The notes under the pieces were generated by a model that saw nothing but the letters and a program-made list of their open reading frames with translations, was not told the origin of the DNA and searched no databases. Below are positions 3,578 through 49,341 of a DNA stretch of 64,000 bases, in pieces (position 1 is the first letter of the stretch; the number at the start of each line of letters is the position of its first letter). The translations under genes were made by a program, and so were the position numbers. Origin of the DNA: Escherichia coli (GTDB taxonomy: Bacteria; Pseudomonadota; Gammaproteobacteria; Enterobacterales; Enterobacteriaceae); assembly GCF_003991155.1 (NCBI RefSeq), contig NZ_CP031293.1. The stretch is one strand, 5' to 3'.

Positions 3578-3677
3578 AAATTGGTGGTCATTCTGGTGGT
3601 CTTGACAATCTCGATTTTTTGTTTTAGCTTACCAATCAGCCAGTTAATGGCTACGGCGATCCCAGTCAGAGGAGCCC
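3578..3677 (+). repeat. att-like repeat copy A (about 70 bp of island arm plus the last ~17 nt of tRNA-Asn)
   Basis: ttggtggtcattctggtggtcttgacaatctcgattttttgttttagcttaccaatcagccagttaatggctacggcgatcccagtcagaggagcc; the 3' end matches the tRNA-Asn acceptor/T-arm end (cagtcagaggagcc). Confidence 0.75.
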
Positions 3678-3683
3678 AATTTC

Positions 3684-6008: not shown

Positions 6009-6084
6009 TCCTCTGTAGTTCAGTCGGTAGAACGGCGGACTGTTAATCCGTATGTCACTGGTTCGAGTCCAGTCAGAGGAGCCA
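6009..6084 (+). tRNA. tRNA-Asn (GTT anticodon)
   Basis: tcctctgtagttcagtcggtagaacggcggactgttaatccgtatgtcactggttcgagtccagtcagaggagcca; 76 nt, anticodon loop ctGTTaa. By recalled K-12 layout this is asnT-like by its downstream context and asnV-like by its upstream context. Confidence 0.95.
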
Positions 6085-7636: not shown

Positions 7637-7954
7637 ATGAAAACGATAAAGACCTACATAACTGCCGACGGGCGAGATCTGTATGCAGAGTTTTTTAAAG
7701 GGTTACGCGACCCCATCGCGAAGGCAAAGATCGCTTCCCGGATCAACCGGATGGCTTCGGACAATTTTGGCGACCATAAGCCCTGCCGGGAAGGTGTCTG
7801 GGAACTCAGGATAGATCAAGGGGCTGGGTATCGGGTTTATTACAGCCTGGTGGATGGAGAAGTCGTCCTGTTGATTCTGGCTGGCGACAAGCGTACGCAG
7901 GATGCAGATATAGATGAGGCTATTCGCTGCCTCAAAGACTATTTGAAGAGGTGA
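7637..7954 (+). CDS. Type II toxin, RelE/ParE superfamily (addiction module killer protein)
   Basis: 105-aa ORF MKTIKTYITADGRDLYAEFFKGLRDPIAKAKIASRINRMASDNFGDHKPCREGVWELRIDQGAGYRVYYSLVDGEVVLLILAGDKRTQ...; upstream of and 3 nt from an HTH antitoxin gene. Confidence 0.7.
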   Translation: MKTIKTYITADGRDLYAEFFKGLRDPIAKAKIASRINRMASDNFGDHKPCREGVWELRIDQGAGYRVYYSLVDGEVVLLILAGDKRTQDADIDEAIRCLKDYLKR

Positions 7955-7957
7955 TGT

Positions 7958-8266
7958 ATGGCGAAAGAACGTTTATATGATGATGTCATGGTGGAAGCGC
8001 TCCGGGAAGATCCTGCTTTTGCTCAGGCCTATCTGCATCAGGCATTTCTGGATATGGATGAAGATGGCGGTCAGGAAGCTTTTTTACTCGCGTTACGCCA
8101 TGTTGTTGAAGCGCGGGGAGGAATGGCGACGGTTGCCCAGAAAGCCGGTGTATCGCGTGAATCACTGTACCGCACGCTCTCCCCGACCGGCAACCCGACA
8201 CTGAAAACACTCCGCAGCGTCGTCCACGCCGCAGGTTTTCAGTTCTCTGCGCTGGCAAGTGCCTGA
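7958..8266 (+). CDS. HTH-type antitoxin (addiction module antidote protein)
   Basis: 102-aa ORF with C-terminal HTH (ATVAQKAGVSRESLYRTLSPTGNPTLKTLRSVVHAAG); adjacent to the toxin gene. Confidence 0.7.
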   Translation: MAKERLYDDVMVEALREDPAFAQAYLHQAFLDMDEDGGQEAFLLALRHVVEARGGMATVAQKAGVSRESLYRTLSPTGNPTLKTLRSVVHAAGFQFSALASA

Positions 8267-8388
8267 GTAGTTTTACATTTTGCAGCGATAATATAAATTG
8301 TAAATCATAATCCCTCCGTTGCTCTGTTCTGAGCAACGGATTACTTTGCATATTATCTGCTTTGCTAATCCATCAATTTTTAATTACC

Positions 8389-8682
8389 TTACATGGAAGC
8401 AACATACTCCATTAAATTATCTAATAAAAAATCAACCTTACTTATACCTTCATTTACATTATCGGCATAGATAAGTTCTACGAGCTTCATCCAACTTAAA
8501 TTGGAACGTACATTGTATTGTAAAAGGAGCCACTCTCTAAATCCCTCTAACATTTTACCGTCAAAGGAAAAATCCATCCCTAGTATAAAAGCCACAGTGT
8601 TTTCATAGTTATTTTCAAGTAGATACATATCGATATGCTTCTTAAAAAAAACAATTTTTTTTAGGAGGATATTTTTATTCAT
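8389..8682 (-). CDS. Putative immunity protein for the orphan Rhs C-terminal toxin
   Basis: 97-aa AT-rich ORF immediately 3' of the orphan Rhs toxin fragment (2-nt gap). Confidence 0.5.
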   Translation of the reverse strand: MNKNILLKKIVFFKKHIDMYLLENNYENTVAFILGMDFSFDGKMLEGFREWLLLQYNVRSNLSWMKLVELIYADNVNEGISKVDFLLDNLMEYVASM

Positions 8683-8684
8683 AA

Positions 8685-9299
8685 TTAAAATCCAAAATTG
8701 ATTGCATCAGGATATTGCCATAACTCTTTATATTCTTGTAATGGTAAACCGTCTGAGCCAGTAAAGGCATCATAAACCCGACCATCTTTTACTACAACGT
8801 CGTGATATGCCCAACCGGGATTCGTGCCTCTGTATTTACCTAATGAAGGAGCTCCGAAATCAGGTCTAATTCTTGCAATATCACCACCGATTTTCTTTTG
8901 TACCCACAATGCAAAATCTTCACAACCATTCCAGTTCTCAGAATTTTTAATATCCGCAGCCTTCCATACACAATCAGCGTTAAGGCCTAATGGATCAATC
9001 CAATTTAACGGATCTTTGACGTAACTGTATGGATTAATACCTCCCAACACCCCGGTTGGATCTGCCGAAATATACTGCGCAGTATCAGGATCATAGTACC
9101 GGAACCGGTTATAGTACAGTCCTGATTCGGCATCTTCATACTGCCCCGGAAAACGCAGGCGGCAGTCAGGTGCATCATCCCTGTTCCTGCCTTCTTCCCG
9201 GCCCCAGAGCTGTTGTTTTCCCCGCCAGACAATGGTGCCGCCCTCGGTCAGCAGTTCCTGGACACGGCCGACCGTATCCGTCACCGCGTAATGCAACAA
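8685..9299 (-). CDS. Orphan Rhs C-terminal fragment with a distinct toxin tip
   Basis: 204 aa: conserved end of the Rhs core (GRVQELLTE...RLRFPGQYED.ESGLYYNRFRYYDPDTAQYISADPTGVLGGINPYSYVKDPLNWIDPLGL) followed by a divergent ~95-aa C-terminus. About 300 bp (9000-9300) nearly identical to 10140-10440 in the main Rhs gene. Confidence 0.8.
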   Translation of the reverse strand: MLHYAVTDTVGRVQELLTEGGTIVWRGKQQLWGREEGRNRDDAPDCRLRFPGQYEDAESGLYYNRFRYYDPDTAQYISADPTGVLGGINPYSYVKDPLNWIDPLGLNADCVWKAADIKNSENWNGCEDFALWVQKKIGGDIARIRPDFGAPSLGKYRGTNPGWAYHDVVVKDGRVYDAFTGSDGLPLQEYKELWQYPDAINFGF

Positions 9300-9442
9300 G
9301 CCTTTCTCATAACGCGCCAGCGGTGTAAAACTTCCCGGTTCGTATATCCAGCGGATGGCGTTTTCATCATCTGGCTTGCCGTCCTGGCTGACCGGAATTT
9401 CTTGGTTAGATGACCGTCAGTTAAATGGATATTATCATTCCA

Positions 9443-9784
9443 TTAAAAATCGGAATGATCCATATATTCTATATGCTCATCAGAAAGTCCATCTGGATAT
9501 AACTCTCTTGGATAATCACTATCTAAAATTGCTAGGAAGTTATTTATAGTATTTTCCAATGCCTCATCTACTGTTTTTCCCCAGCCAATAGCACCTTCGG
9601 GACAATCATCAAATTTCCGTTTAATCATTACATTTGTAATCCCCATGTAACTCCCATCCTGAGACTCTCGTATTTTTATTTTTACTTTTGCGCTAGGGAT
9701 AACACCAAACATCCAAATTACAAACTCGGCTTCAACTTTCTCTACTTTAGATACACTGCGTATTTTCATTTGATGCCAGCCCAT
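9443..9784 (-). CDS. Putative immunity protein for the main Rhs toxin
   Basis: Small ORF 10 nt 3' of the Rhs stop; likely start at MGWHQMKIRS (9784). No motif-based support. Confidence 0.5.
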   Translation of the reverse strand: MGWHQMKIRSVSKVEKVEAEFVIWMFGVIPSAKVKIKIRESQDGSYMGITNVMIKRKFDDCPEGAIGWGKTVDEALENTINNFLAILDSDYPRELYPDGLSDEHIEYMDHSDF

Positions 9785-9794
9785 ATCTTTTCCT

Positions 9795-12700
9795 CTATAA
9801 ACGACCAAAAGAGACAATTTCCCCTGTATCTACCGCAACATCAATATATCTTCCGTTCTTTCTATATCTCCACACATTTTCAGTATAACCAGAAACTTTG
9901 GTTGGTTTTATTCTTCTCAAGTTCTCAGAAAAAACCTTAGCTTTATTTAGATATTGCTCTACCGTTTCTGCACCAACTTCACGACCATGTTTTCTGAAGT
10001 GCTCCAGTAATGACTCTGCCGGAGTATCCCAACTTCCTTTACTCCATAGTTTTTTACAATTTACTTCTTGCAGGAATGCAAATAATGCCGATAAACCTAA
10101 AGGGTCAATATAACTAAATGGGTTCTGTACATATGAATATGGATTTAATCCCCCAAGTAACCCAATGGGATCTGCCGAAATATACTGCGCCGTATCAGGA
10201 TCATAGTACCTGAACCGGTTATAGTACAGTCCTGATTCCGTATCTTCGTACTGCCCCGGAAAACGCAGGCGGCAGTCAGGCGCATCATCCTTGTTTCTGC
10301 CTTCTTCCCGGCCCCAAAGTTGCTGTTTTCCCCGCCAGACAATCGTGCCGTCTTCGGTCAGCAACTCCTGGACACGACCGACCGTATCCGTCACCGCGTA
10401 ATGCAGCAAGCCTTTCTCATAACGTGCCAGCGGTGTAAAACTTCCCGGTTCATATATCCAGCGAATGGCATTTTCATATTCTGGTTTGCCATCAGTACCA
10501 ACAGGAATTTCTTCGGTTAACTGATCGCCATTCCAGTGGAAATCCATTCCGGACTTATCACGGTTGGTACACCGTTTGCTGATGCGCCTGCCAAACGGGT
10601 CGTATTTATACTCCCAGCGTTCCCCCTCCGGCGTTTCAAGCCCGGTAAGCTGACTTCTGGCATCCCAGCGATAGCGCCATTCGAGCGGACGATAGCCGCC
10701 TTTATCGACCAGTTTCTCCACCAGGCGACCATTAGCATCGTACGTCCAGGTAATATTGTGCTCATTCACCACCCGGACAAATTTTCCCTCTTCCGGCTTT
10801 CCTGTGTCCGGGTTGATGCGGTGTGTCTGATGCCGCCAGCCTTTGTGCTCTCTGGAAACAACTCTTCCATGCCGCAACTGCTGGTGTGTCTCGCTTTCCA
10901 GCACCTCATTTACCCATGTCTGGCGGCGGGCAATATTCAGGTTTTTGTCATAAGTGAACAGTTCCTCACACAGCGGAAACTCCCGGGAATCGCCCGTCCA
11001 GGTGGCATGGCTTACCTGGTCGTTAACCGTCATATTGTTGAAGGCTGATCCCCGCAGCGAGTCTGATATTACCGTCAGGTTGTACGCCTTGTCATACAGC
11101 CACTGGCGCTCCAGGCTTTTGTTCCGTTCGTACGGCCCGGCCTGGTGGTCCCCGGCATTCTGCTTCGCTGGCATCCCTGTGCGCGTGTATGCCAGCGTCT
11201 GGTAAAACCCGGCCTCGCTCCGCCTGGACGTTTCCAGGCCGCGCAGGTCGTGCTCAAATGTCAGCGGGGCATGGTCCGCTATCTGCCAGGATGCCAGATG
11301 CCCCATCAGGTTTCGGGTAAAGCGTTCTGTGATACCTGCTGTGGTGCGCTGTGTGACCGTATCCAGGTCAGGGTCGTAACGGTATTCTGTGCGCCTGCCG
11401 TTCAGCGTTTCGGCAACAATCTGGTTTGCATCGTTATATTCAAATGTAACGGTGGCATCGTCATTCTTCGCTTCCACCAGACGACGCTGCGTGTCGTAAC
11501 GAAATGTGGTGACACTCAGAGTTCGGTCACTGTTGCCCTGTGTGACTTCCTCGTCCGTCACCTGGTCATTCACGTTGTAGCGGCGGTTAAGGTGAGTGCC
11601 GTCCGGGAAGCTGGTGCGAATACAACGCCCGACGGCATCGTAGGTGTAGTTCAGCGTGCGTCCGGTGAAGTCTGTTTCTGCTACAAGCTGCCCGGCTTTA
11701 TCATATTTAAGACGGTAGCGCTCGCCTTCGGCGTTGGTAATTTCGGTCAGGCGGGTCAGTTTATCGTAGCGACACGCCAGCCGCTCGCCGTCAGGACGCA
11801 CCAGAGCCGTGAGCAGATCGAATGCACCGTATTCGTAACGGGTGGTTTTGCCCTCGCCATCGGTAAAGCTTTCCGGTAGCTTTTCGCTGTTCTGGCGCAT
11901 CAGTTCCCGCACGCCGTCCGGGCGCTGGATTTCTTCCACGCAGCCCTGTGGCCCGGCGTGGATTTTGCTGTGACGAAACTGCGTGGTGAAGCCAAGTGGG
12001 TCTTTCACACTTAACAGTCGGCCCAGCATATCCTGTTCGGTCTGCGTGATGCCGCCGTCTGGCGCAACAGTCTCGCGCACCTGATGCAGGGCGTCATGAC
12101 TCCAGCACCAGGTGGCCCCGCCCGGCAGAATCCGTGCAAGCAAATCACCCTGTTCACTGTAGCTGAACTGCTGTTTCCGGCCCTGAGGGTCGATCAGGCT
12201 GATTATGCTGCCCCGATCATCATAGACCCATTGCCACGCCTGATTATCAGTTGTCGACAGCCGGGTTAACTGACCGGTATCATTATACTCGTAGAACAGG
12301 CCATAGCCGCCCGGCAGGGCAACCTGGATAACCTCACCTTCCCGGTTATAGCGGTACGCCGTGGTACGCCCCAGCGCATCGGTGCGTGACTGAAGCCGGG
12401 CATTATTCCAGACGGTAATTTCTTCCCGCCCCAGCGGATCGATACAGCGGGTGACCAGGCCGTCCTCGTTATACCAGTAACGGGTTTCGCCCCCTTCTGC
12501 ATCCAGGTAGGTGGTGCATTTTTCATCATCGTTATAGATAAAGCGGTCATCGAAGTAGCCTTCCGTTGACAGTGTGCTGACAGCGCGCCCCTGCGGATCA
12601 TAGCGGATATCCACACAGGTTTTGTCCGTATCCCGCCAGCGGGTCATAAAGCCTTCTGATGTGTACTCATGCCATAAATGCGAGAACTGGAAGGTATCGC

Positions 12701-16717: not shown

Positions 16718-16841
16718 CTAATACCAAAATAACTCTATGATTAAAAAGGCTGATATATATGCTGGAAGTAGACAGACTACCGGAAACAGTACGACGGTGA
16801 CAGGGTGAACCAAAGGGTTAGGCGCATTTTAAAAAGGTGGT

Positions 16842-16928
16842 CATTCTGGTGGTCTTGACAAACTCGATTTTTTGTTTTAGCTTATCAATCAGCCTGTTAA
16901 AGGCTAAGGCGATCCCAGTCAGAGGAGC
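16842..16928 (+). repeat. att-like repeat copy B (island right end next to yeeJ)
   Basis: aaaaaggtggtcattctggtggtcttgacaaactcgattttttgttttagcttatcaatcagcctgttaaaggctaaggcgatcccagtcagaggagc; sits where asnT lies in recalled K-12 order (about 250 bp upstream of yeeJ). Confidence 0.75.
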
Positions 16929-17168
16929 AAAATTCTAAAAATTCGCTTTTTTAGCGCAATATCACTGACCTTAGTTGAGCATTGCTTTTTAATGGATAGC
17001 GGGTTTTTGACATCTTAAGCGCCCTCGACCTTTATGGTTGAGGGCGTTTTGCTATGAACGCCATCACCATTTTCCCCTCGATTATAAAACTTGAGTAATT
17101 CAGTAGTCTCCCCTCTTGCAACTCACACCCAAAACTGCTTAACGAAAAGTTATTAATTTTCAATCATA

Positions 17169-30781: not shown

Positions 30782-31238
30782 TTATATTTTAAAGAAATCT
30801 GTCTTTATGGCAGATTTCTTTAATCTCATATAATTCTTATAAAGAATATAATATCCAGCTCGTCATATTGATTATAAAACCCACGCTCCCAGAGAAATAA
30901 TATTTATTAAAATTCCAGGCCTTCTTTTTCTGATTACAGAAGGCAAAGTGGCAATTACGTATAGTTTCCCGATAAAGACGTGACAGCAACATCCCGCATA
31001 AGGCATTTTTCTCTTTATCTTTGTACGGTGCTTCATGGAACAGAGTTTTTGACCTTGCGAATCGTGATGTCTGTTGGGGGGCAATTTGCTCACTGAAGCG
31101 TGAGACTCGATTAAGCACACGAAACACAGAAATCAAAAAACCCGGTCACTTTTTTACAAGGTAACCGGGTAAAAATGATTTTATTTTTTAACTGTCTTGA
31201 GACTCATAGAGATGTCTCAAAACTAAAATTTGGCTCCT

Positions 31239-31338
31239 CTGACTGGGATCGCCGTAGCCTTTAACAGGCTGATTGATAAGCTAAAACAAAAAATCGAGTT
31301 TGTCAAGACCACCAGACTGACCACCATTTTTATTAGCG
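31239..31338 (-). repeat. att-like repeat copy C (tRNA-Asn 3' fragment plus island arm) bounding the defence-like cassette
   Basis: Minus-strand reading: tggtggtcagtctggtggtcttgacaaactcgattttttgttttagcttatcaatcagcctgttaaaggctacggcgatcccagtcagaggagccaaa. The adjacent 31196-31238 matches the hairpin downstream of the tRNA at 6085-6120. Confidence 0.75.
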
Positions 31339-31496: not shown

Positions 31497-32414
31497 ATGA
31501 AGTCCAGATTTGGACCAAATGGGGTGCATTTATTCGACCGAAATACAGGTCTGAACGTCCTCCTGGAGGAGTTACGCCCAAAGGAATCTGTTTGGTCCAT
31601 TTCTCCACGCCAGGTCTCGATTGCACTTACCAATCTTTGTGACCTTCGCTGCGCACATTGTTTTGCGCCCAAGCATAAGGCATTGCTACATACTGACCAA
31701 GTGCTTACTTGGTTAAAAGAACTGGATACTGAAGGATGCCTCGGTATCGGATTTGGTGGTGGAGAACCAACACTGCATCCTGATTTCGTCGAAATATGTA
31801 AACGGGCTGCTGGGGAAACTCATCTTGCAGTCACATTTACGACTCATGGTCACCGTCTGACCCAGCCATTGGTTAAAAAACTCAAAGGCTCGATCCACTT
31901 TGCGCGCATTAGCGTTGACGGGATAGGTCATACCTACGAAGAACAACGTGGAAGGCAGTTTTCAAGTTTACTCAGAGGCATTGAGTCGATCGCGAAATTG
32001 TCGTCTTTTGGGATCAATGTCGTGATAAACGAGCGTACGATTTTTGAGCTTGACGCAGTGGCTGAGCTGGCGCAACAGTTTGGTGCTAGTGAATTGCTGT
32101 TGTTGCCTCAGCAAGCAACTAATGCAGTCGCAAGTATGGACGAATTGGTCGGCCGAGAGCTTCAAAACTGGGTCTCTAGCTATAGAGGAAAGGTTCGACT
32201 TGCAGTAAGTGAGGTGGGAGCGTCAGGGCTCCCCATATGTGACCCTCTTCCTAATGAAACAGGCCTTCAAGCCTACGCGCATATAGACGCTTCCGGGATA
32301 TTGCGCACGAGTTCTTATTCAACCACAGGTATGGATATTGAAGAAACTGGTGTTATGTCCGCGCTTAAACGGCTTAGAAATACCTTAGAGATTAAACAAG
32401 GGACACAATCATGA
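31497..32414 (+). CDS. Radical SAM enzyme (single 4Fe-4S cluster type, no SPASM extension)
   Basis: 305-aa ORF; CDLRCAHCF (CxxxCxxC, nt 31635-31658), GFGGGEPTLHP (GGEP SAM-binding motif), ARISVDG; stop overlaps the next start (ATGA at 32411-32414). Confidence 0.8.
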   Translation: MKSRFGPNGVHLFDRNTGLNVLLEELRPKESVWSISPRQVSIALTNLCDLRCAHCFAPKHKALLHTDQVLTWLKELDTEGCLGIGFGGGEPTLHPDFVEICKRAAGETHLAVTFTTHGHRLTQPLVKKLKGSIHFARISVDGIGHTYEEQRGRQFSSLLRGIESIAKLSSFGINVVINERTIFELDAVAELAQQFGASELLLLPQQATNAVASMDELVGRELQNWVSSYRGKVRLAVSEVGASGLPICDPLPNETGLQAYAHIDASGILRTSSYSTTGMDIEETGVMSALKRLRNTLEIKQGTQS

Positions 32415-32818
32415 AAATTTGGAACGGATACGGATCTGAGCATTCGATGAACTTAGTTCTCATCGGAAAATTCAAGCAAGAGCAAGATGCAGTGAAGGTC
32501 GAGAAGGATATTAAAACGCTCAGTACTCAGGCTGAGAAAGATGAATGTTACTCGATCCCTTTTGATGAGCCAGAGAATCAACGGTTTTCATATGAAATGC
32601 TCTCATTACTATGCAGCCTAAAACTCCACACTTTAGGACCAACCGATCTTGGTCAATTGGTGTCAGATCATCATCTAGATCGCGAAGGCGATAGAATAAC
32701 AATAACTACTGATGAGGCAGAGGTATCCGCGTTCGTGAAGCTGTTTGTCGAGGCTGGAGCAAAGGTCGAGATTTTCTCAGCGCATGACTATCCGTCCGAT
32801 TCCAGCGATGCCAGTTGA
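32411..32818 (+). CDS. Hypothetical 135-aa protein, translationally coupled between the radical SAM and NTPase genes
   Basis: Start overlaps the radical SAM stop; its own stop TGA overlaps the TTG at 32815. No recognisable motifs. Confidence 0.6.
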   Translation: MKIWNGYGSEHSMNLVLIGKFKQEQDAVKVEKDIKTLSTQAEKDECYSIPFDEPENQRFSYEMLSLLCSLKLHTLGPTDLGQLVSDHHLDREGDRITITTDEAEVSAFVKLFVEAGAKVEIFSAHDYPSDSSDAS

Positions 32819-35800
32819 CAGAGGATGCATTGATGCCTGAAGTAAATTGGAAAGTATTCAACGAACTGCCCGGTGCAGCAGATGTGAACTTCGAAAACCT
32901 TTGCCGCGCTCTGGTACGCCGACACTATGGTCGTTTCGGTCGCTTTAAGCAACTCGCAAATCAGCCTGGGGTGGAGTTTCACCTCGAGCTGACGGAGCCT
33001 TGTGATCTCGGTGCGCCACCAGGTTGGATTGGTTGGCAATGCAAGTGGTATGAACTGGTGAATGGACAAGATTTGGGAGCCTCCCGCCGCAACAAGATCA
33101 TCGAAGGTATCGAAAAGACGCGTAAGCATGTCCCTGGAGTGACCAATTGGAAGCTTTGGACTCATCACACGTTAACAAAAGGTGATCAAGAGTGGTTTTT
33201 CGCGCTAGAGCAAGACCGCTTCCCAGAATTGAAGTTAGAACTGCTCACAGCTACGGATATCGAAGATCTTTTGGTCGGACCGGGAGCGCTTTTACGAGAA
33301 ACCTACTTTGGTGAACTGGTTCTAACTCCAGAGCTAATTGCTGAGCAGTATAAGCTTGCAGTGGCCCCATTTAAGAACCGCTACCAGCCAGATGTTCATG
33401 TAGCGGTGGGGGCTGAGGAGAATATATTCAGGCATCTGTGCAGCCAAAACGCATGGGAATCTCTGGAAGAACTCTCAAACGCTTTAAAAAAGAATCATAC
33501 GAGCATTGCTTCGGTTACTGAGCAACTCAAAACTGAGCTCAGGGCTGAAGTTGAATTACTCCTGGCCCGGGTTATTGGGTTGACTGAGTTTATTGATGGC
33601 TTACACGCGGCGCTCGGCAAAGGTGACTTTAACTCTGTATATCAAGCGTTGGTTTCAAATCCGCGTCAGCCGGTACGTTATGACAGGCTACTTTCGAAAT
33701 TGCGTGGAGCGCGCTTTGACGGGGCTCCGTTAACCGCTAATTTGGTTGCAGATATCCACGCGGTTTCGTCAGTTCTCCGCAGTCTGGAGCAATCGATTAG
33801 TGCTCGGGCGGTTGCTGTTCTTGCGGCGGCGGGGGAAGGTAAGTCTGAACTTGCAGTCAAGGTAACACAGCCAGAAGGGGCGTTCCTAGGGGGAATCCTC
33901 CTATTAGGCAAGAATCTTCATTCAGGCCAGGGGCTTGATGATCTCGTATCTGCCTTCAAGATTTCTGGGAGACCAGCAGAAAGTTTTGACCGCCTGATTG
34001 AGGCCGTAGATGCGGCAGGCCAGCGTGCAGGTAAACGCATACCTATTGTTATTGACGGTCTGAATGAGGCGGAAGATCCGAGAAATTGGAAGGATGAATT
34101 ATCCCGAGTGGATGAGCTTCTAAAGAATTTTCCTTATGTCTTGTTAGTTGTCACTCTTCGCAATGAATTCGCCCAGATGTGTCTGCCTGAGGGGTTTCCC
34201 CAAGTTGAACATAATGGGTTTCAGGAAGATCCGAAGACAGCATTTGACAAGTATTTTGAGTACTACAAGATCGATGCTACTGATGCGGATCTACCAGTCG
34301 AACTCTTGCAGCACCCCTTAACACTGAGAATTTTTTGCGAAGTAGCAAATTCTCCTCGTCAGCATATTGTCGGAGTGGAAGCATTGCCCCGTTCGCTTGC
34401 AAGCCTGTTCGAAGCTCACTTTAACAAGGTTGCAGCACGAGTCGCTGAGCTTTCACCGACGATGCATCGCATTTATCAAGATGACGTTCAGGATGCACTA
34501 CTAACGATCGCGGGTCTTCTTTGGGATAACAATGCGAGAAGTGTGGATTTTCAGGCTACACGGATGGCAGTTCGGGATATGGGGTGGGACGACAGTATTA
34601 TTCGTGCACTGGAGTCTGAAGGCATTCTCGTTCGGACTATTTCTCCAGAAGGTAGGCAAGGAGTTGCGTTTGCATACGACCTAATGGCCGGACATATGAT
34701 GGCGCGCAACCTGCTTATGAAGCCTGAACTGGTGCAATGGCTACAAAGCGATGAAGGGAACGCAAAATTTAAATCTCATGGACCTGATTCGCATACCTTC
34801 GCTTATGACGTATTACGGGCTCTGGTTGATCTGTATCCGCAACACTCTGGTAGGCGGCAGCTTTGGCAAGACTTGTCGGATGATATACTCGTTATGAACG
34901 CTCTGCTATTGACGACGCAATCGGATCCAAGATATATCGGGCGGGCTACTGTTGAACGATTTGCTCAAGCTATGCAGGAGTCGAAGCGGTTTGCACAACT
35001 TGCCTTCGAGAGACTACGGAGCACTAGGGCTGCGCTGGCACATCCGTTTGATATGAGCTTTTTGCATGATGTGCTAATGGCTATGTCCAACACTCAGCGC
35101 GATCTTTTTTGGTCAGAGTGGATTCGTCAGAAATCTGAACAAGTTAAAGACGACTTAAAATTCTTGTCGACGAGATGGAAATCGGGTCATCTGGATGAGC
35201 GTGAACTTCGAAGAGTTCGCTGGGTAATGTGGACACTGACGACGACATCCAGAGCTTTGCGGGATATGGCTACCAAAGCCCTGTATGAATTTGCCATCAG
35301 GCGGCCAGAAGAGTTTTTCCGGTTAGCGACGGAGACAATTGTAGTTTCAGACCCATATGTCCCCGAGCGAGTGTTCGCCGCAGCCTACGGTGCAGTCCTG
35401 ACCACTTGGTCGGATATCGATGCGGTAGAGTTACATGATGCGTTGCCACGGTTCGCTCGTGAGATTTACCAAACCATGTTTGCACCTGGCGCTACAGCCC
35501 CTACCTGGCATGCATTACATCAGCAGTACTGTTTGGGAATCATTGCCATTGCGAGGATGGTCGATCCAAATTGTTTTTCAGAGGACGAAGCTGTTTATCT
35601 TCTTCCGCCATTTAGCCATCTGCCTAACGTATTTGAAAGCATTCAACCGTACGATCCAGAGATGATTGGGCGAGCGGAGAGCGCAGCGATTCAAATGGAC
35701 TTTGGTAACTATACGATTGGTGGACTTATTCCAGACAGAGCGAACTACGATGACAGTAATCCGGAGTACCAACAGGTGTTGCAGGCCATTGTTTCTCGAA

Positions 35801-36891
35801 TGCTGATGCTTGGTTATGACCCTGAGCAGTTTGAAGCTGTTGATCGGCAAATGTACTCCGGTTCTCGTATGGGAGATGACAAGCACAAAATCGATCGATA
35901 TGGCAAAAAGTACGGCTGGATAGCTTACTTCGAGATGTGGGGGATACGATACGCGCAGGGCCTCCTTTCCGAAGAACGCAGTGCTCGCCCATCAGATGCT
36001 GATATCGATCCAACGTTTCCGCAAAAAGTAGAGAGTATTAGTTTGTCACTCCCAGTCTTATTTAACGATCCGTCTGTGGATGATGGTGACTGGATCGTGG
36101 GAGGCCCGCTACCTGACTACCGTAGCATCCTTGAGATTACGGAGGTTGATGGTCTGACGGGGCCATGGATCCTACTTGACGGTTTTGTTGAGCAAAATGC
36201 TACCTCGGATGACCGACAGATTTTCACTTTCCTGCGAGGAGTATTCGTAGATAGCCAAGAAGTTGACAATCTATGTAGGTTGTTCATTGATCTTGAATAT
36301 CCTGGCAATAGCGCCATCCCTGATGCTCCTGGCTACTATTACACCTATGCGGGTGAGATGCCTTTCCCGACTATTCCGGGGCTGCTAGTCGCTAATGAAC
36401 AAGAGGATGATAGCGATGAAAATTTGGTGTTCGCAGAAAGATGGTCAGGCAATGGCGTTGCGGTAGATATCACAGTGCAGGACTACAACTGGGAGAGCTA
36501 CCATAGCGTGGAGAACCAAAGCAGCGGTGCGAGCCTGCCCTCAAAGCAACTTTGTGAGGCTTTGAATCTCAGATACTGTGCAAACAAATGGGATTTGCAT
36601 GATGCTGCAGGTGTAGCGTCACTTTACCGCAAAATTGACGAAAATGGTTCGGACGTCAGTGGCTCTGTCAGCTATCTACGTCGTGATCTACTTGACCGCT
36701 ATTTGATGCAATCCGGTAAGGTATTGGTATGGCTTATGTGGGGAGAGCGTGGTTTTCATTACCGGTCCAACAAGACACGCAATTTGCACAGGTATTACGT
36801 GAATCACCAACATATTCACAAGCGTATTCATATCCATCAGATAGCTTCGAGTACTAGTAACCCAAATATTGCGGATGGAGTCGCTATATGA
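32815..36891 (+). CDS. NACHT-like STAND NTPase with an N-terminal Mrr-like nuclease-fold domain and a long C-terminal region (NLR/Avs-like)
   Basis: 1358-aa ORF (TTG at 32815 or ATG at 32833). N-terminus FENLCRALVRRHYG...EPCDLGAPPGWIGWQCKWY resembles an Mrr-cat type D...QxK nuclease. Walker A VLAAAGEGKSE (nt 33823-33849, aa ~340); Walker B IPIVIDGLNEAED (aa ~410) then LLVVTLR. About 850 aa of C-terminus without enzymatic motifs. Confidence 0.8.
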   Translation: MTEDALMPEVNWKVFNELPGAADVNFENLCRALVRRHYGRFGRFKQLANQPGVEFHLELTEPCDLGAPPGWIGWQCKWYELVNGQDLGASRRNKIIEGIEKTRKHVPGVTNWKLWTHHTLTKGDQEWFFALEQDRFPELKLELLTATDIEDLLVGPGALLRETYFGELVLTPELIAEQYKLAVAPFKNRYQPDVHVAVGAEENIFRHLCSQNAWESLEELSNALKKNHTSIASVTEQLKTELRAEVELLLARVIGLTEFIDGLHAALGKGDFNSVYQALVSNPRQPVRYDRLLSKLRGARFDGAPLTANLVADIHAVSSVLRSLEQSISARAVAVLAAAGEGKSELAVKVTQPEGAFLGGILLLGKNLHSGQGLDDLVSAFKISGRPAESFDRLIEAVDAAGQRAGKRIPIVIDGLNEAEDPRNWKDELSRVDELLKNFPYVLLVVTLRNEFAQMCLPEGFPQVEHNGFQEDPKTAFDKYFEYYKIDATDADLPVELLQHPLTLRIFCEVANSPRQHIVGVEALPRSLASLFEAHFNKVAARVAELSPTMHRIYQDDVQDALLTIAGLLWDNNARSVDFQATRMAVRDMGWDDSIIRALESEGILVRTISPEGRQGVAFAYDLMAGHMMARNLLMKPELVQWLQSDEGNAKFKSHGPDSHTFAYDVLRALVDLYPQHSGRRQLWQDLSDDILVMNALLLTTQSDPRYIGRATVERFAQAMQESKRFAQLAFERLRSTRAALAHPFDMSFLHDVLMAMSNTQRDLFWSEWIRQKSEQVKDDLKFLSTRWKSGHLDERELRRVRWVMWTLTTTSRALRDMATKALYEFAIRRPEEFFRLATETIVVSDPYVPERVFAAAYGAVLTTWSDIDAVELHDALPRFAREIYQTMFAPGATAPTWHALHQQYCLGIIAIARMVDPNCFSEDEAVYLLPPFSHLPNVFESIQPYDPEMIGRAESAAIQMDFGNYTIGGLIPDRANYDDSNPEYQQVLQAIVSRMLMLGYDPEQFEAVDRQMYSGSRMGDDKHKIDRYGKKYGWIAYFEMWGIRYAQGLLSEERSARPSDADIDPTFPQKVESISLSLPVLFNDPSVDDGDWIVGGPLPDYRSILEITEVDGLTGPWILLDGFVEQNATSDDRQIFTFLRGVFVDSQEVDNLCRLFIDLEYPGNSAIPDAPGYYYTYAGEMPFPTIPGLLVANEQEDDSDENLVFAERWSGNGVAVDITVQDYNWESYHSVENQSSGASLPSKQLCEALNLRYCANKWDLHDAAGVASLYRKIDENGSDVSGSVSYLRRDLLDRYLMQSGKVLVWLMWGERGFHYRSNKTRNLHRYYVNHQHIHKRIHIHQIASSTSNPNIADGVAI

Positions 36892-37052
36892 GTTACGACT
36901 TCAGAAATCTTTCATCCGCAAACTTTGAGGATCTTGTGCGGGATCTTATCGAAAAAGAAGAAGGGTTCGCTTCGAAGCATTCTCTGTGGGGGCTGATAAT
37001 GATATTGATGGCCGACACGCACATGCTGGAGGGAATGTCAGTTTATAGGTAA
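36888..37052 (+). pseudogene. Short ORF resembling an Mrr-like N-terminal fragment (possible remnant of a further gene)
   Basis: 54 codons overlapping the NTPase stop (ATGA): MSYDFRNLSSANFEDLVRDLIEKEEGFASKH...; the FEDLV..L motif echoes the N-terminus of the NTPase protein; followed by ~1 kb with no ORF. Confidence 0.3.
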
Positions 37053-38005
37053 AACCTTATGAAGGGGCGTCGTTTAGTATACTGATGGCTATTATGAAGT
37101 GTGAGTGGTTGTCTAAAGATAAGCTAGCCCTCACACGCTGTATCAAGCGACCTCTTGTTAGCTTACTCCAGCTAGCAAGAGTAAACTTTCCCCACTCATA
37201 GGGCTATGTTTGAAGTCCGAGTCGGAAATTGGGGGGCAGAAGACATAAAAGGTCTCCTTAAGAAGTCTTCTTGTCTGTACAAAAACTCTTATTTTGACAA
37301 AGAGCATTGTAGTTATTAACAGGCTGATTAATAAATTTAAAAATAAGTCGTCAGGAACACCAGATTAGCTACCCAAATTCTCATGCCGTGGAAGCGGAAG
37401 AAAAATACTCCCCTGAATATCTTCATATCGGATATACATAATAAGCTTGAGGTTGTATATTTGAAGAATTGAGTAGCCAGAGCCTTGTTGACATAAAGCG
37501 ACACGAACAACATGTTACTTAAAATATCACGAGTATATATTCAGACTTGTTTATGTTGCGACATGGATTCTACAGGCAGCTGGCTGAAACAGTGAGTCAG
37601 AAAAATTTACAGGAGCGCCATAGTCATTAATGGATATCCGTAATATGCTGATGCAAAAGGGTAAGGAGTTTGCCGGTAATCTGCGGTGTTAGACGACAAT
37701 TACAAAACGACCTTAGGCGTCAATTACCGCTGAAAAAAGTGACAGATCACTTTCTATAAAATGCTGCCGTATGACCGACAGATTTATTCCGCTTTATAGC
37801 CATGACTGTTCGGTGCTCACTTCGCTGCGCTCCGCCTCAGTCCTGCCTAAAAAGCGTTGCAGGTTAGTTTGTATCGGCCTAATGAAAGGCTGTTTTAGCG
37901 AAGCGTAAATGTGACATCTTATCTGGTCTAATCTCTTTGCGATAATTGACGCAAAAGCATGGGCTGTAATTGTCACGCAATACTGCGGCAAGTCTCATGA
38001 TGATG

Positions 38006-38100
38006 CCTCTGACAGGGATCTCCGTAGCCATTAACTGGTCGATTGGTAAGCTAAAACAAAAAAATTGAATTTGTCAAGACAGCCATAATGACTACCATTT
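38006..38100 (-). repeat. att-like repeat copy D (degenerate), internal boundary of the composite island
   Basis: Minus-strand reading: tggtagtcattatggctgtcttgacaaattcaatttttttgttttagcttaccaatcgaccagttaatggctacggagatccctgtcagagg; the tRNA-derived end is truncated and diverged. Confidence 0.65.
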
Positions 38101-38264
38101 TCGTCTCTGCTTTTCCATCCTGAAATTAATGGCTATCATATTCGCAATAGACAACATCATCTTACTTGCACTCAACTATAACTAATGCTGAGTGCAAGAA
38201 ACGGGGATTATATCCCCTATCAAGGACCTGTTGAAATATTAGTCTGGAATTTCGAGGCTGTAAT

Positions 38265-38789
38265 TTAAATTGCTCCATTTGCCTTAGCATCAAGAATGAA
38301 TTTTTCATACTCGCGTTCTGCAACAACAACAGGGACTGTTTTGCGATTATATAATTGCATTAATAACAATGTACGATGCCTTCCATCAGAAACACCAAAT
38401 TCACTGTTAGATGCCTCTGGATATTCAACATACCCTTTTGATATATATTTTTTGATTTTATGCCATCTACGCGGATCAATGCAGAATGCTCCATCTCCTA
38501 ATTTTTTAAGAAAGGCTAGCCCATCGACATATACAATCCTGGTAGGACAATGCCGATAGCGTACAGGAAGGGTAAAGATAATATTTTCAAAAACAGGGAA
38601 AGTAAGACCTGAATCATCTTTAGGTATTGACTCAAAGGAATCAAAAGGATATTTTGTCATGTAATCATTTAGTTTTTCAATATCCATATTGGAAAACCAC
38701 GATACTTCCGGGAGAAATTTTTTATCTCTTTCTCTAATTTCTTTGATCGAATCTCCAAATATATCATCTAACCTCCACCCCTCTTTCAT
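38265..38789 (-). CDS. Hypothetical protein with a DGxHR motif (ParB/Srx-like fold suspected)
   Basis: 174-aa AT-rich ORF; ...EFGVSDGRHRTLLLMQL... resembles the DG(Q/H)HR core of ParB-like nuclease-domain proteins; last gene of the orphan Rhs array. Confidence 0.4.
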   Translation of the reverse strand: MKEGWRLDDIFGDSIKEIRERDKKFLPEVSWFSNMDIEKLNDYMTKYPFDSFESIPKDDSGLTFPVFENIIFTLPVRYRHCPTRIVYVDGLAFLKKLGDGAFCIDPRRWHKIKKYISKGYVEYPEASNSEFGVSDGRHRTLLLMQLYNRKTVPVVVAEREYEKFILDAKANGAI

Positions 38790-38833
38790 TTATGCTCCTA
38801 AAATAATGTGATATTAAAAATTCTGTTAATAAG

Positions 38834-39349
38834 TCAAATTTTATGAATACTAATAAGGGGTTTGCACCACTCAACCGAGAGAATATCTTCCATTTTATAA
38901 AAAACGCCATAATCACTTTGATTATAATGCTCAATTTTATCAGCCATTTGTAATCTAATTTTGTCTTTGTAAATTCTACTTCGGATCAAACTGGCGAAAT
39001 TATATATATCAACCCTCAGATTGATAATATTATTTCTATCTGGGCGTCTTTCATGTAACATATCACGAAAAGAAACAAGTAACGTAATTAATTTTTTAGC
39101 CTCATTATTTTTAATATATCCTTTTTTAAAGATGCATAATATTAATTTTGAAATTAAGCTGATTTTTATTTGTAAATTATAGATAGCATTATCGTTTGTC
39201 AGGCAGGTTATGACTTCAATTACTTCACGTGAGCGAATATAATTGTCCAGTGCTTCCCATTCATCCATTCCTCGATGCATTGAAAGTTCCAATTGCCTTA
39301 AAAAAGCATATAACCCCAATAAGAAGTCGCTATTGCAGTATATTTTCAT
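38834..39349 (-). CDS. Putative immunity protein for Rhs fragment B
   Basis: 171-aa AT-rich ORF overlapping by 4 nt the stop of the Rhs C-terminal fragment. Confidence 0.5.
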   Translation of the reverse strand: MKIYCNSDFLLGLYAFLRQLELSMHRGMDEWEALDNYIRSREVIEVITCLTNDNAIYNLQIKISLISKLILCIFKKGYIKNNEAKKLITLLVSFRDMLHERRPDRNNIINLRVDIYNFASLIRSRIYKDKIRLQMADKIEHYNQSDYGVFYKMEDILSVEWCKPLISIHKI

Positions 39350-40835
39350 GAATCACATCCTTTAATAAAACTCATTATTCGTGACCAAAAAGAGTCTTTT
39401 TTGTATATAGGGTTTTTATCGTTTAATGGTAAAGGATCGTCTGTTGGTATAACGGCTGTATTTCTTGGCCCAACATTTGTTTTAGTAAGTGAATCTTTGG
39501 AAGCATCAAACTCTACATAAGAACCATTCTTCCATGCCCCTGTTTCTGCACCTGCCGTTTTAGGATCTCCAAATGGCTCCACCTCAACGTGTACACCAAC
39601 AGGATTGCCTCTGGCAGGGTTGATAGACCCATCCTTGCTAATTCCATCAATACCCTCTGTTGAAGTATGATGTCTAACTCTAACAGTATCGTCACCAGTT
39701 AACCCTAACGGATCAATAATTTTTAGCGGATTAAATACATATCCATACAGGCAATCCCCACCTCTCAGCCCCATCGGATCAGCACACAGATACTGCCCCG
39801 TATCGCAATCATAATACCTGAATCGGTTATAGTACAGGCCTGACTCAACATCCTCGTACTGCCCCGGAAAACGTAACCGGCATGTGGGCGCATCTTCTTT
39901 ACTGATGCCTTCCTCACGCCCCCAGAGCTGCTGCTTGCCTTTCCAGACTATCAGACCCTCTTCGGTCAGCAGTTCTTGTACGCGGCCAGTTGTGTCTGTT
40001 ACCGCATAATGCAGTTGCCCCTTTTCATAACGCGCAAACGGCGTGAAATCTCCCGGCTCGTATATCCAGCGGATGGCGTTTTCATCTTCCGGTTTGCCGT
40101 CAGCGCCAACCGGAATTTCCGCCGTCAACTGGTCGCCGTTCCAGTGAAAATCCATGCCGCGTTTGTCGCGGCTGGTACAGCGCTTGCTGATGCGCCTGCC
40201 GAACGGGTCATACTTATATTCCCAGCGTTCGCCCTCCGGTGTTTCCAGTCCGGTCAACTGGCTGCGTGCATCCCATTTATAACGCCATTCCAGTGGGCGA
40301 TAACCCCCTTTATCCACCAGTTTCTGTACCAGCCTGCCGTTAACATCATATTTCCAGGTGATGTTGTGCGCATTCACCACCCGGACAAATCTCCCGTCTT
40401 CCCCTTTTCCGGTGTCCGGGTTGATGCGATGCGTCGAGTGCCGCCAGCCTTCATGTTCCCGCGATACCACACGACCATGCTGCTGTTGCTGGTGCGTCTC
40501 GCTTTCCAGTACGTTATTCACCCTGATCTGGCGACGGGTAATGTTCAGGTTTTTATCGTAAGTGAACAGCTCCTCGCACAGCGGAAACTGGCTGGAATCA
40601 CCCGTCCAGGTGGCGTGGCTTATCTGGTCGTTTGCCGTGATGGTGTTGAACATGGAGCCGCGCAGCGAGTCGGCGATTGCGGTGAGGTTATACGCTTTGT
40701 CGTAGCTTCGCTGCGTCGGGAGGTTTCCATGCCGCACAGGTCGTGCTCAAATGTCAGCGGGGCATGGTCCGCTATTCGCCATGACGTAAGATGCCCCATC
40801 AGGTCGCGGGTGAAGCGTTCTGTGATACCCTCAGC
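39346..40835 (-). pseudogene. 5'-truncated Rhs fragment B (last ~350 aa of core plus a distinct C-terminal toxin tip)
   Basis: ORF 39346-40737: ...GLYYNRFRYYDCDTGQYLCADPMGLRGGDCLYGYVFNPLKIIDPLGL then a unique ~120-aa tip. DNA 39690-40835 is homologous to 10150-11340 of the main Rhs gene, with a frame disruption near 40700-40760. Confidence 0.8.
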
Positions 40836-49265: not shown

Positions 49266-49341
49266 TGGCTCCTCTGACTGGACTCGAACCAGTGACATAC
49301 GGATTAACAGTCCGCCGTTCTACCGACTGAACTACAGAGGA
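49266..49341 (-). tRNA. asnW: tRNA-Asn (GTT)
   Basis: Reverse complement is identical to the tRNA-Asn at 6009-6084; lies between the integrase and yeeO. Gene symbol from recalled K-12 synteny. Confidence 0.9.

Follow-up and report, generated by a model that had tools for sequence, protein, structure and literature searches.

The ParB/sulfiredoxin (Srx) fold underlies several enzymatic activities, among them the ATP-dependent phosphotransfer of Srx, the ATPase-regulated DNase activity of Osa, the nucleoside triphosphatase (NTPase)/nuclease activity of GmrS and the CTPase activity of ParB (PMC4619093, PMC5512222, PMC3482391). In Osa, the ATPase and DNase activities reside at a loop of sequence DGMTR, which is the equivalent of the FGGCHR ATP-binding signature of sulfiredoxin and of DGQQR in GmrS (PMC4619093). 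The present analysis concerns a small open reading frame (ORF) of an Escherichia coli chromosome (contig NZ_CP031293.1), which encodes a 174-amino acid (aa) protein with the related peptide DGRHR and is the last gene of an orphan Rhs toxin/immunity array. The window, that is, the whole stretch of DNA analysed, spans 64,000 nucleotides (nt), and in identical E. coli chromosomes the product of the ORF is entered in RefSeq as the hypothetical protein WP_223718426.1. The reading that we favour, with some reserve, is that the 174-aa protein is a ParB/Srx enzyme of mobile-element origin rather than an Rhs immunity protein.

The ParB/Srx fold is well supported by structure prediction. The AlphaFold2 model, calculated from an alignment of the close family (A1), has a mean predicted local distance difference test (pLDDT) score of 88.9 and a predicted template modelling (pTM) score of 0.81, and comprises one compact domain that is devoid of a helix-turn-helix (HTH), a dimerisation domain or any DNA-binding domain. 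The model exhibits the α/β core common to the N-terminal domain of ParB (ParB-N), Srx, Osa, SerK and PadC, and residues D135-G136-R137-H138-R139 form a predicted phosphate-binding loop of the Gly-x-x-Arg type at a strand-to-helix junction. Foldseek matches in the PDB were weak (E 0.5–4), with ParB-N and Srx ranked first, and among viral models (BFVD) the top matches were 'ParB/Sulfiredoxin domain' proteins (best E 6e-4). Profile searches gave only weak ParB-like hints, namely a PHROG ParB-like match (E 0.044, residues 104–159) and, among 30 family members, weak matches of single members to GmrSD_N (E 0.0073) and PFIN (E 0.16). An earlier note on this DNA, made from the letters alone, had remarked on the resemblance to the ParB/Srx fold and had proposed a profile search and structure prediction as checks; the confident model, the Foldseek ranking and the invariant GRHR bear that resemblance out.

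The family is small and previously unannotated, within the well-known ParB/sulfiredoxin superfamily. Among 5.8 billion proteins it forms 54 clusters at 90% identity, and of 1.84 billion 50%-identity representatives 50 belong to it at E ≤ 1e-3; all members are short, stand-alone proteins of ~110–230 aa. Single-sequence and profile searches returned no usable match for the 174-aa protein in Pfam, NCBIfam, PADLOC or the PDB sequences; PDB sequence matches to the mitoribosomal protein uL29m (E ~ 0.09) were judged to be due to chance. Close relatives were found in only 2 of 100,044 species-representative genomes, and a scan of IMG/VR revealed no contig with a close relative; these pattern scans relied on A1, as the second alignment of the family (A2), which extends down to 21–27% identity, is too divergent for the purpose.

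Conservation is concentrated in the C-terminal core. A1 contains the nearly invariant block CIDPRRWH...YPE...DGRHRTLLLMQ...PV, in which, together with the residue preceding it, F102, I104–W109, Y123, P124, G136, H138, R139 and P153 are invariant. In A2 the invariant residues are P56, P124 and G136-R137-H138-R139. Since GRHR stays invariant, and D135 reaches at least 90% conservation, in homologues as distant as ~22% identity, the DGRHR motif is not a chance occurrence. R108 is nearly invariant across homologues at ~22–60% identity.

The ORF has the properties of a genuine gene. Its ratio of nonsynonymous to synonymous substitution rates (dN/dS) is 0.15–0.20 versus the Salmonella, integrative and conjugative element (ICE) and Vibrio copies, indicating purifying selection, and it is therefore taken as a real coding gene. 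The GC content of 35–37.5% (~36%) contrasts with ~47–57% in the flanking Rhs core and Avs2-like genes. It is the final ORF on its strand, begins 44 nt past the gene for a 171-aa protein and is preceded by a Shine-Dalgarno sequence. The length, AT-richness and DGxHR-type peptide attributed to it earlier were all confirmed by the ORF listing and by reading the sequence. Two hairpins follow the stop codon and may constitute a terminator-like end of the transcription unit; they are consensus matches only, the count of terminator-like sites in the region not exceeding the shuffled expectation.

For a comparison with Osa, the protein was taken from R388, an alignment of the Osa family was built, and BLASTP, hhalign (default, permissive and global modes) and hmmsearch in both directions were applied. 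The nearest solved structure to the model of the 174-aa protein is that of Osa (PDB 4OVB), with 99 residues aligned as against 72–78 for the other matches, so that the alignment with this closest structural neighbour extends past the minimal core. Two collinear blocks are shared, IVYVDGLAF in the 174-aa protein with IVYVNGLAF in Osa (BLASTP) and DGRHRTLLLMQ..PVV with DGMTRSMWLLA..FPV (hhalign), the latter within a pairing of residues 132–161 with Osa residues 135–163. Judging by the model, the 174-aa protein looks most like Osa, yet it is not filed in PF22162 (PFIN; Osa/FiwA) because the sequence relation to Osa is not significant: the PFIN match cited above came from only one of the 30 members, and hhalign did not exceed 5%. 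The signature also differs, DGMTR in Osa compared with DGRHR in the 174-aa protein, which keeps the His-Arg of sulfiredoxin. With respect to sulfiredoxin itself, the catalytic Cys is replaced by Arg137, and the 174-aa protein is bacterial, borne by mobile elements, extended by an N-terminal part of ~100 residues and found without a peroxiredoxin context.

The remaining relatives by fold are more distant. Neither the window protein nor the 30 family members matched PF02195 (ParBc) at E ≤ 1. In contrast to partition ParB/KorB/Noc, PadC and pNOB8 ParB-N, the 174-aa protein possesses neither an HTH nor a C-terminal dimerisation domain, and it carries DGRHR where ParB has the GERRxR(A) arginine patch. 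The island contains no ParA gene; the ParA locus found on plasmids, 1.5–6 kb from the family gene, has a small partner protein of its own. Because an HTH and a dimerisation domain are missing, the 174-aa protein cannot be a centromere-binding partition ParB. The likeness to the DGQHR-domain protein DndB and to GmrS comprises DGQHR or DGQQR as compared with DGRHR, followed by a hydrophobic helix (PMC4619093), the weak GmrSD_N match of one family member, and the vicinity of defence islands, which the chromosomal family copies adjoin. Assignment to the DGQHR domain (DndB-like; TIGR03187/PF14072) or to GmrS/DUF262 was considered and rejected, as only the DG.HR pentapeptide is shared and no Pfam or NCBIfam match was found; the QR pair and FxxxN motifs of the DGQHR domain are conserved in neither A1 nor A2, and the 174-aa protein has no fused HNH/DUF1524 domain and no accompanying dnd genes.

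Conjugative plasmids and ICEs of Enterobacterales and Vibrionaceae are the main carriers of the family. A tblastn search located it on 202 PLSDB plasmids, 149 of which are predicted to be conjugative. On IncFII-like MOBF/MPF_F plasmids (Enterobacter, Klebsiella, Citrobacter, Pantoea and E. coli), the gene lies near repA, beyond a ParA locus, is directed opposite to the leading-region genes and is followed by genes for a 236-aa tyrosine recombinase, RelB/ParE and DUF2913. A clade of 43% identity to the window protein (WP_001027529.1, 170 aa) accounts for most of 126 Escherichia plasmids, and all four sampled E. coli IncF ColBM plasmids (L013, L030, L031, L032) share the order integrase-cmi-cma-cbi-cba-family gene-parR-parM. 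A tyrosine recombinase 46% identical to that of the IncFII-like plasmids is encoded on the ColBM plasmids just past the colicin M/B genes, ~4 kb from the family gene; insertion of the colicin module may have separated the recombinase from the family gene of the 43% clade. On the IncP-1-like plasmid pDS1, the family gene is situated between klcA and higBA, and on Providencia plasmids it adjoins DUF2913 and an ATPase/UvrD pair. The latter, an ATP-binding protein gene and a UvrD-helicase gene at 7733–10881 of one such plasmid locus (L014), could represent a defence pair of the Gabija type. On several plasmid types DUF2913 is a repeated neighbour of the family.

Among ICEs, an ICE-like contig (L016) has the family gene together with ArdC, DUF1281, integrase and TraG_N, and a Vibrio element has it with TraI_2/AcaB/Dam. 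A member of 37% identity occurs within an MPF_G (ICEHin1056-type) type IV secretion system (T4SS) cluster, beside the coupling-protein operon. In both loci (L028/L029, 6001–6519) its gene is inserted in opposite orientation, with the coupling-protein (TraG-D_C/DtrJ-like) operon on one side and the MPF_G pilus/T4SS operon on the other, a position suggestive of a protein that acts on conjugation. None of the plasmid and ICE contexts examined contained Rhs. Beside the window gene, a tblastn search for the plasmid neighbours (tyrosine recombinase, RelB, ParE, DUF2913, ParA) found no remnant of them, and the DNA homology of the window to the Salmonella, ICE and plasmid copies is limited to 38267–38770, within the ORF. 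The flanks were also searched for homology indicative of a larger mobile module, and the similarity stops at the ORF ends.

The favoured reading would make the ORF a single-gene cassette stranded as terminal cargo of a tRNA-Asn island, just past the orphan Rhs toxin/immunity array. The core helix carries the invariant D-G-R-H-R loop at its N-terminus, and this loop would form, with the conserved IDPRRW strand, the nucleotide-phosphate pocket typical of the fold; by analogy with Osa, Srx and GmrS this DGRHR/IDPRRW pocket may bind or hydrolyze nucleoside triphosphates (NTPs). Nicking or degradation of DNA under NTP regulation is possible on the same analogy with fold relatives. NTP binding, nuclease activity and fertility inhibition are thus activities that we infer from related proteins, and the role served would most likely be either inter-element conflict or a maintenance function of the carrying element. 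For the former, an Osa-like weapon against rival conjugative transfer is a tentative proposal, about which we have more doubt than conviction. A bolder version of it appears rather improbable: the family would represent a new, sequence-distinct class of Osa-like fertility-inhibition factors, with an NTP-regulated ParB/Srx nuclease site directed against rival T4SS substrates, carried on IncF (ColBM and KPC-type IncFII-like included), IncP-like and ICE backbones, and its chromosomal copies at the edges of Rhs arrays and defence islands would have been co-opted as anti-plasmid defence.

Maintenance is the best surviving alternative to conflict, although we consider it unlikely. The 174-aa protein, a small NTP switch of the ParB/Srx type, would be an accessory tied to the recombinase and partition genes near it and would aid either the tyrosine recombinase, in multimer resolution or integration, or partition; on the chromosome it would persist as a remnant that is without function or has been co-opted. 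The gene organization is consistent with such a role, for on IncFII-like plasmids the family gene is always 85–90 nt upstream of, and co-directional with, the gene for the 236-aa recombinase, with RelB/ParE next and the ParA locus near, and on ColBM plasmids parMR is adjacent and the related recombinase is at the distance given above. Moreover, in L016 the family gene is convergent with the integrase gene, and in the window and in another locus (L023) no further gene lies between it and an att-like site or integrase. However, the recombinase does not adjoin the gene in pDS1, the Providencia plasmids, the Vibrio ICE, the MPF_G ICE, Salmonella or the window, and the recombinases that are involved belong to different families. 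The lack of a predicted DNA-binding domain also argues against this role, and cargo genes of all kinds tend to gather at the ends of mobile elements.

Its location makes it natural to ask whether the 174-aa protein is an orphan or second Rhs immunity protein, directed against a toxin no longer encoded here or against the adjacent tip, as is common for genes that close orphan arrays. The likeness to orphan Rhs immunity genes and to Tox-ParB tips comprises the position at the array end, small size and AT-richness typical of tips and immunity genes, and ParB-fold Rhs tips exist (PMC3482391). The gene is on the same strand as the array, 44 nt past an immunity gene, and the 171-aa/174-aa pair stays together in three E. 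coli array variants. In other E. coli the order is DUF2169, full-length Rhs (1464 aa), 181-aa immunity, 171-aa, 174-aa, Avs2-like, and a metagenomic variant has the 181-, 171- and 174-aa genes followed by an att-like repeat and a P4-type integrase. The Salmonella copies (74–76% identical) are likewise at the ends of Rhs arrays, followed by defence-like genes. In one Salmonella locus (L015), the family gene begins 3 bp past an Rhs fragment. Twenty-three complete E. coli genomes share the 174-aa gene, the tip, the 171-aa gene and the adjacent spacer at 99–100% identity; these are near-identical islands that provide no independent evidence.

The local tip, however, already has a putative cognate gene. 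The position of cognate immunity is occupied by the 171-aa gene, which is assigned to the tip because its start overlaps the Rhs stop by 4 nt and because one locus (L022) retains a degraded copy of the same tip followed by a 52% homologue of the 171-aa gene. L022 lacks the ParB/Srx gene; a 174-aa gene that overlaps an Rhs stop there was considered as a family member and rejected, as its sequence is unrelated. Neither the tip nor the 171-aa gene matches Pfam or NCBIfam, the 171-aa family has only five clusters in 5.8 billion proteins, and from their sequences the two look like an undescribed toxin/immunity pair. Furthermore, the Rhs fragment of L015 is a core truncated at ...NGFELL, where full-length Salmonella Rhs goes on as ...NGFELLAQDEWW..., so it has neither the DPxGL boundary nor a toxin tip, and the family gene after it is in a different frame. 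In another Salmonella locus (L018) the family gene is preceded by a remnant of the insertion sequence IS1, and the DNA that the window shares with the Salmonella, ICE and plasmid copies is the ORF alone. The 174-aa gene is itself not tip-coupled, not fused to an Rhs core and without a partner gene, most homologues reside on plasmids and ICEs without Rhs, and an invariant, catalytic-type GRHR in an enzyme fold would be unexpected in an immunity protein that binds a toxin. We therefore regard immunity as improbable. That the gene might be a separate accessory rather than an immunity gene had been suggested in the earlier note, together with an analysis of homologue neighbourhoods; the 202 plasmids and the ICEs without Rhs and the tip-coupled 171-aa gene uphold the suggestion, no steady pairing with a specific Rhs tip was found, and a ParB-like fold is predicted.

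The 174-aa protein might instead help a conjugative element to overcome host defences or to become established, for example by depleting or sensing nucleotides or by nicking the DNA of the host upon entry; such a factor would be comparable to polyvalent-protein ParB-like domains and to HerB/YfjB, and its chance is about as slim as that of immunity. ParB/Srx domains do recur in early-acting plasmid and phage proteins (PMC5512222, PMC13370423), and several elements carry ArdA, ArdC, KlcA, DNA methylase or DUF1380 genes within a few kb of the family gene. On the IncFII-like plasmid examined, however, the gene runs opposite to the leading-region genes and lies beyond the partition locus, and the 174-aa protein has no PADLOC or other defence-related profile match and is not fused to a polyvalent-protein domain. 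Finally, a stand-alone ParB-type toxin cassette (Tox-ParB-like), kept at the array end as recombination stock for Rhs tips, is very improbable: C-terminal ParB or ParBL1 toxin domains are documented in Rhs and other polymorphic toxins (PMC3482391) and the gene is at Rhs array ends in two genera, but it is neither a C-terminal domain nor a cassette linked to a core, having its own ATG and Shine-Dalgarno sequence with no Rhs core or DPxGL segment before it, no ORF able to encode an immunity protein is present in the 136 nt that separate its stop from the att-like repeat, Pfam gives no toxin-domain match, and as a solitary gene on ~200 plasmids it would be self-poisoning.

Several observations weigh against the favoured reading of a ParB/Srx enzyme of mobile-element origin. 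No significant sequence link to a characterized ParB/Srx family emerged from Pfam, NCBIfam or the PDB, and against the Osa family the hhalign probability was 0.2–5%, while hmmsearch, run in either direction, scored no higher than 6.6 bits. Members of the closest clade (at least 70% identity) are found repeatedly at Rhs array ends in E. coli and Salmonella, and of the chromosomal contexts the closest three, one in the E. coli island and two in Salmonella, are all at the distal edge of Rhs arrays. The family gene also adjoins colicin genes on ColBM plasmids, and an unrecognised functional tie to toxin loci is possible. Lastly, the plasmid site is in the stability region, opposite in direction to the leading-region genes, which suits maintenance about as well as conflict.

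The analysis removes one gene from the Rhs toxin/immunity inventory of the island and provides a fold and a candidate active site (D135, R137, H138, R139) for a hypothetical protein that is encoded on ~200 sequenced plasmids, of which three quarters are conjugative. Its carriers include the common E. coli colicin B/M IncF plasmids and the IncFII-like plasmids of Enterobacter, Klebsiella and Citrobacter. Should the protein prove Osa-like, the few known fertility-inhibition factors, which shape the spread of resistance plasmids from a given host, would be joined by a new family; otherwise it would be another small enzyme of the ParB/Srx type encoded by mobile elements. The finding represents a solid improvement in annotation and a testable lead for plasmid biologists, and is unsurprising to specialists.

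Table 1 Positions of the 174-aa ORF, its parts and signals, and neighbouring features in the window.
Feature	Position	Strand	Basis or remark
174-aa ORF	38265-38789	minus	ATG start; ORF listing
Family-specific N-terminal part of the 174-aa protein	residues 1-~99
ParB/Srx core, FCIDPRRW...YPE...GVSDGRHRTLLLMQLYNRKTVPVVV	residues ~100-160, 38310-38492	minus	most conserved block of the family
Signature peptide GVSDGRHRTLLLMQL; predicted nucleotide-phosphate-binding loop and start of the next helix	residues 132-146, 38352-38396	minus	read from sequence; GRHR invariant in A2; matches Osa DGMTR
Shine-Dalgarno AGGAG, 5 nt before the ATG of the 174-aa ORF	38795-38799	minus	read from sequence
Weak sigma-70-like site	38829-38800	minus	consensus match; not above chance expectation
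Two hairpins 3' of the stop, terminator-like	38162-38217	minus	13-nt arms at 38162-38201; GGGGATATAATCCCC at 38203-38217
171-aa gene, putative cognate immunity of the adjoining upstream Rhs tip	38834-39349	minus	start overlaps Rhs stop
Orphan Rhs fragment, 463 aa (core repeats, DPxGL boundary, ~117-aa C-terminal tip)	39346-40737	minus	RHS_repeat, RHS, Rhs_assc_core
Rhs tip	39346-39700	minus	no Pfam or NCBIfam match
Island-end repeat copy	3578-3682		sequence comparison
Island-end repeat copy	16831-16937		sequence comparison
Island-end repeat copy C	31236-31330	minus	sequence comparison
Island-end repeat copy D, degenerate, reads CCTGTCAGAGGCATCA	38006-38129	minus	sequence comparison
tRNA-Asn gene at the far end of the island, with adjoining decayed integrase (pseudogene)	49266-49341
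Three-gene operon (radical-SAM protein, DUF6375 protein, 1358-aa Avs2-like NLR)	31497-36891	plus
54-aa ORF	36888-37052	plus	start MSYDFRNLSSANFEDLVRDLIEKEEGF
Segment between imperfect inverted repeats	37695-37974		~280 bp

The window is a segment of the E. coli chromosome with yeeN on one side and yeeO/tRNA-Asn on the other, and tRNA-Asn genes lie at 6009, 49266 and 51090. An island-end repeat of ~100 bp is present in four copies, of which the three non-degenerate ones end in a core, CCAGTCAGAGGAGCCA, that resembles the 3'-end of tRNA-Asn; the four copies indicate that several islands have accumulated in tandem at the asn tRNA cluster. The island that extends from the second of these tRNA-Asn genes holds the decayed integrase, a DUF2169 fragment, an IS3 element and two orphan Rhs fragments with their downstream genes. 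Because the degenerate repeat D lies 136 nt downstream of its stop, the 174-aa ORF is the terminal cargo gene of this tRNA-Asn-integrated island, whose end repeat D marks. The ORF order and the repeat comparison agree with the placement given earlier, as the last gene of the array beside a degenerate att-like repeat.

Defence-like genes are found near the Salmonella homologues as well. Downstream of them (L015, 3100–8100; L018, 6600–11400) is a conserved cluster of a CasE-like protein (PF08798, weak) and a DinG-type DEAD/Helicase_C_2 helicase, which is reminiscent of a type IV CRISPR-Cas effector module, and L018 also encodes a ThsA_Macro protein with a possible partner.

Past repeat D of the window, a second tRNA-Asn island occupies the interval between the att-like repeats C and D. 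Its three-gene operon encodes a radical-SAM protein with a pVip-like PADLOC match (E 5e-20), a DUF6375 protein and an Avs2-like NOD-like receptor (NLR) that matches PADLOC PDLC02164 (E 7.7e-116); the occurrence of radical-SAM and DUF6375 genes together with Avs2 may be an unusual accessory combination. The 54-aa ORF overlaps the stop of the Avs2-like gene and resembles the N-terminal motif …FENLCRALVRRHYG… of the Avs2-like protein, and is probably what remains, in truncated form, of another nuclease-NTPase defence gene. Between this ORF and repeat D is the ~280-bp segment listed in Table 1, which is bounded by 36-nt imperfect inverted repeats (75% complementary) and occurs as one copy per genome in the 23 genomes with the island. 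Since it is missing from the otherwise collinear E. coli loci L019–L021, the segment is an insertion or deletion polymorphism that resembles a miniature inverted-repeat transposable element (MITE).

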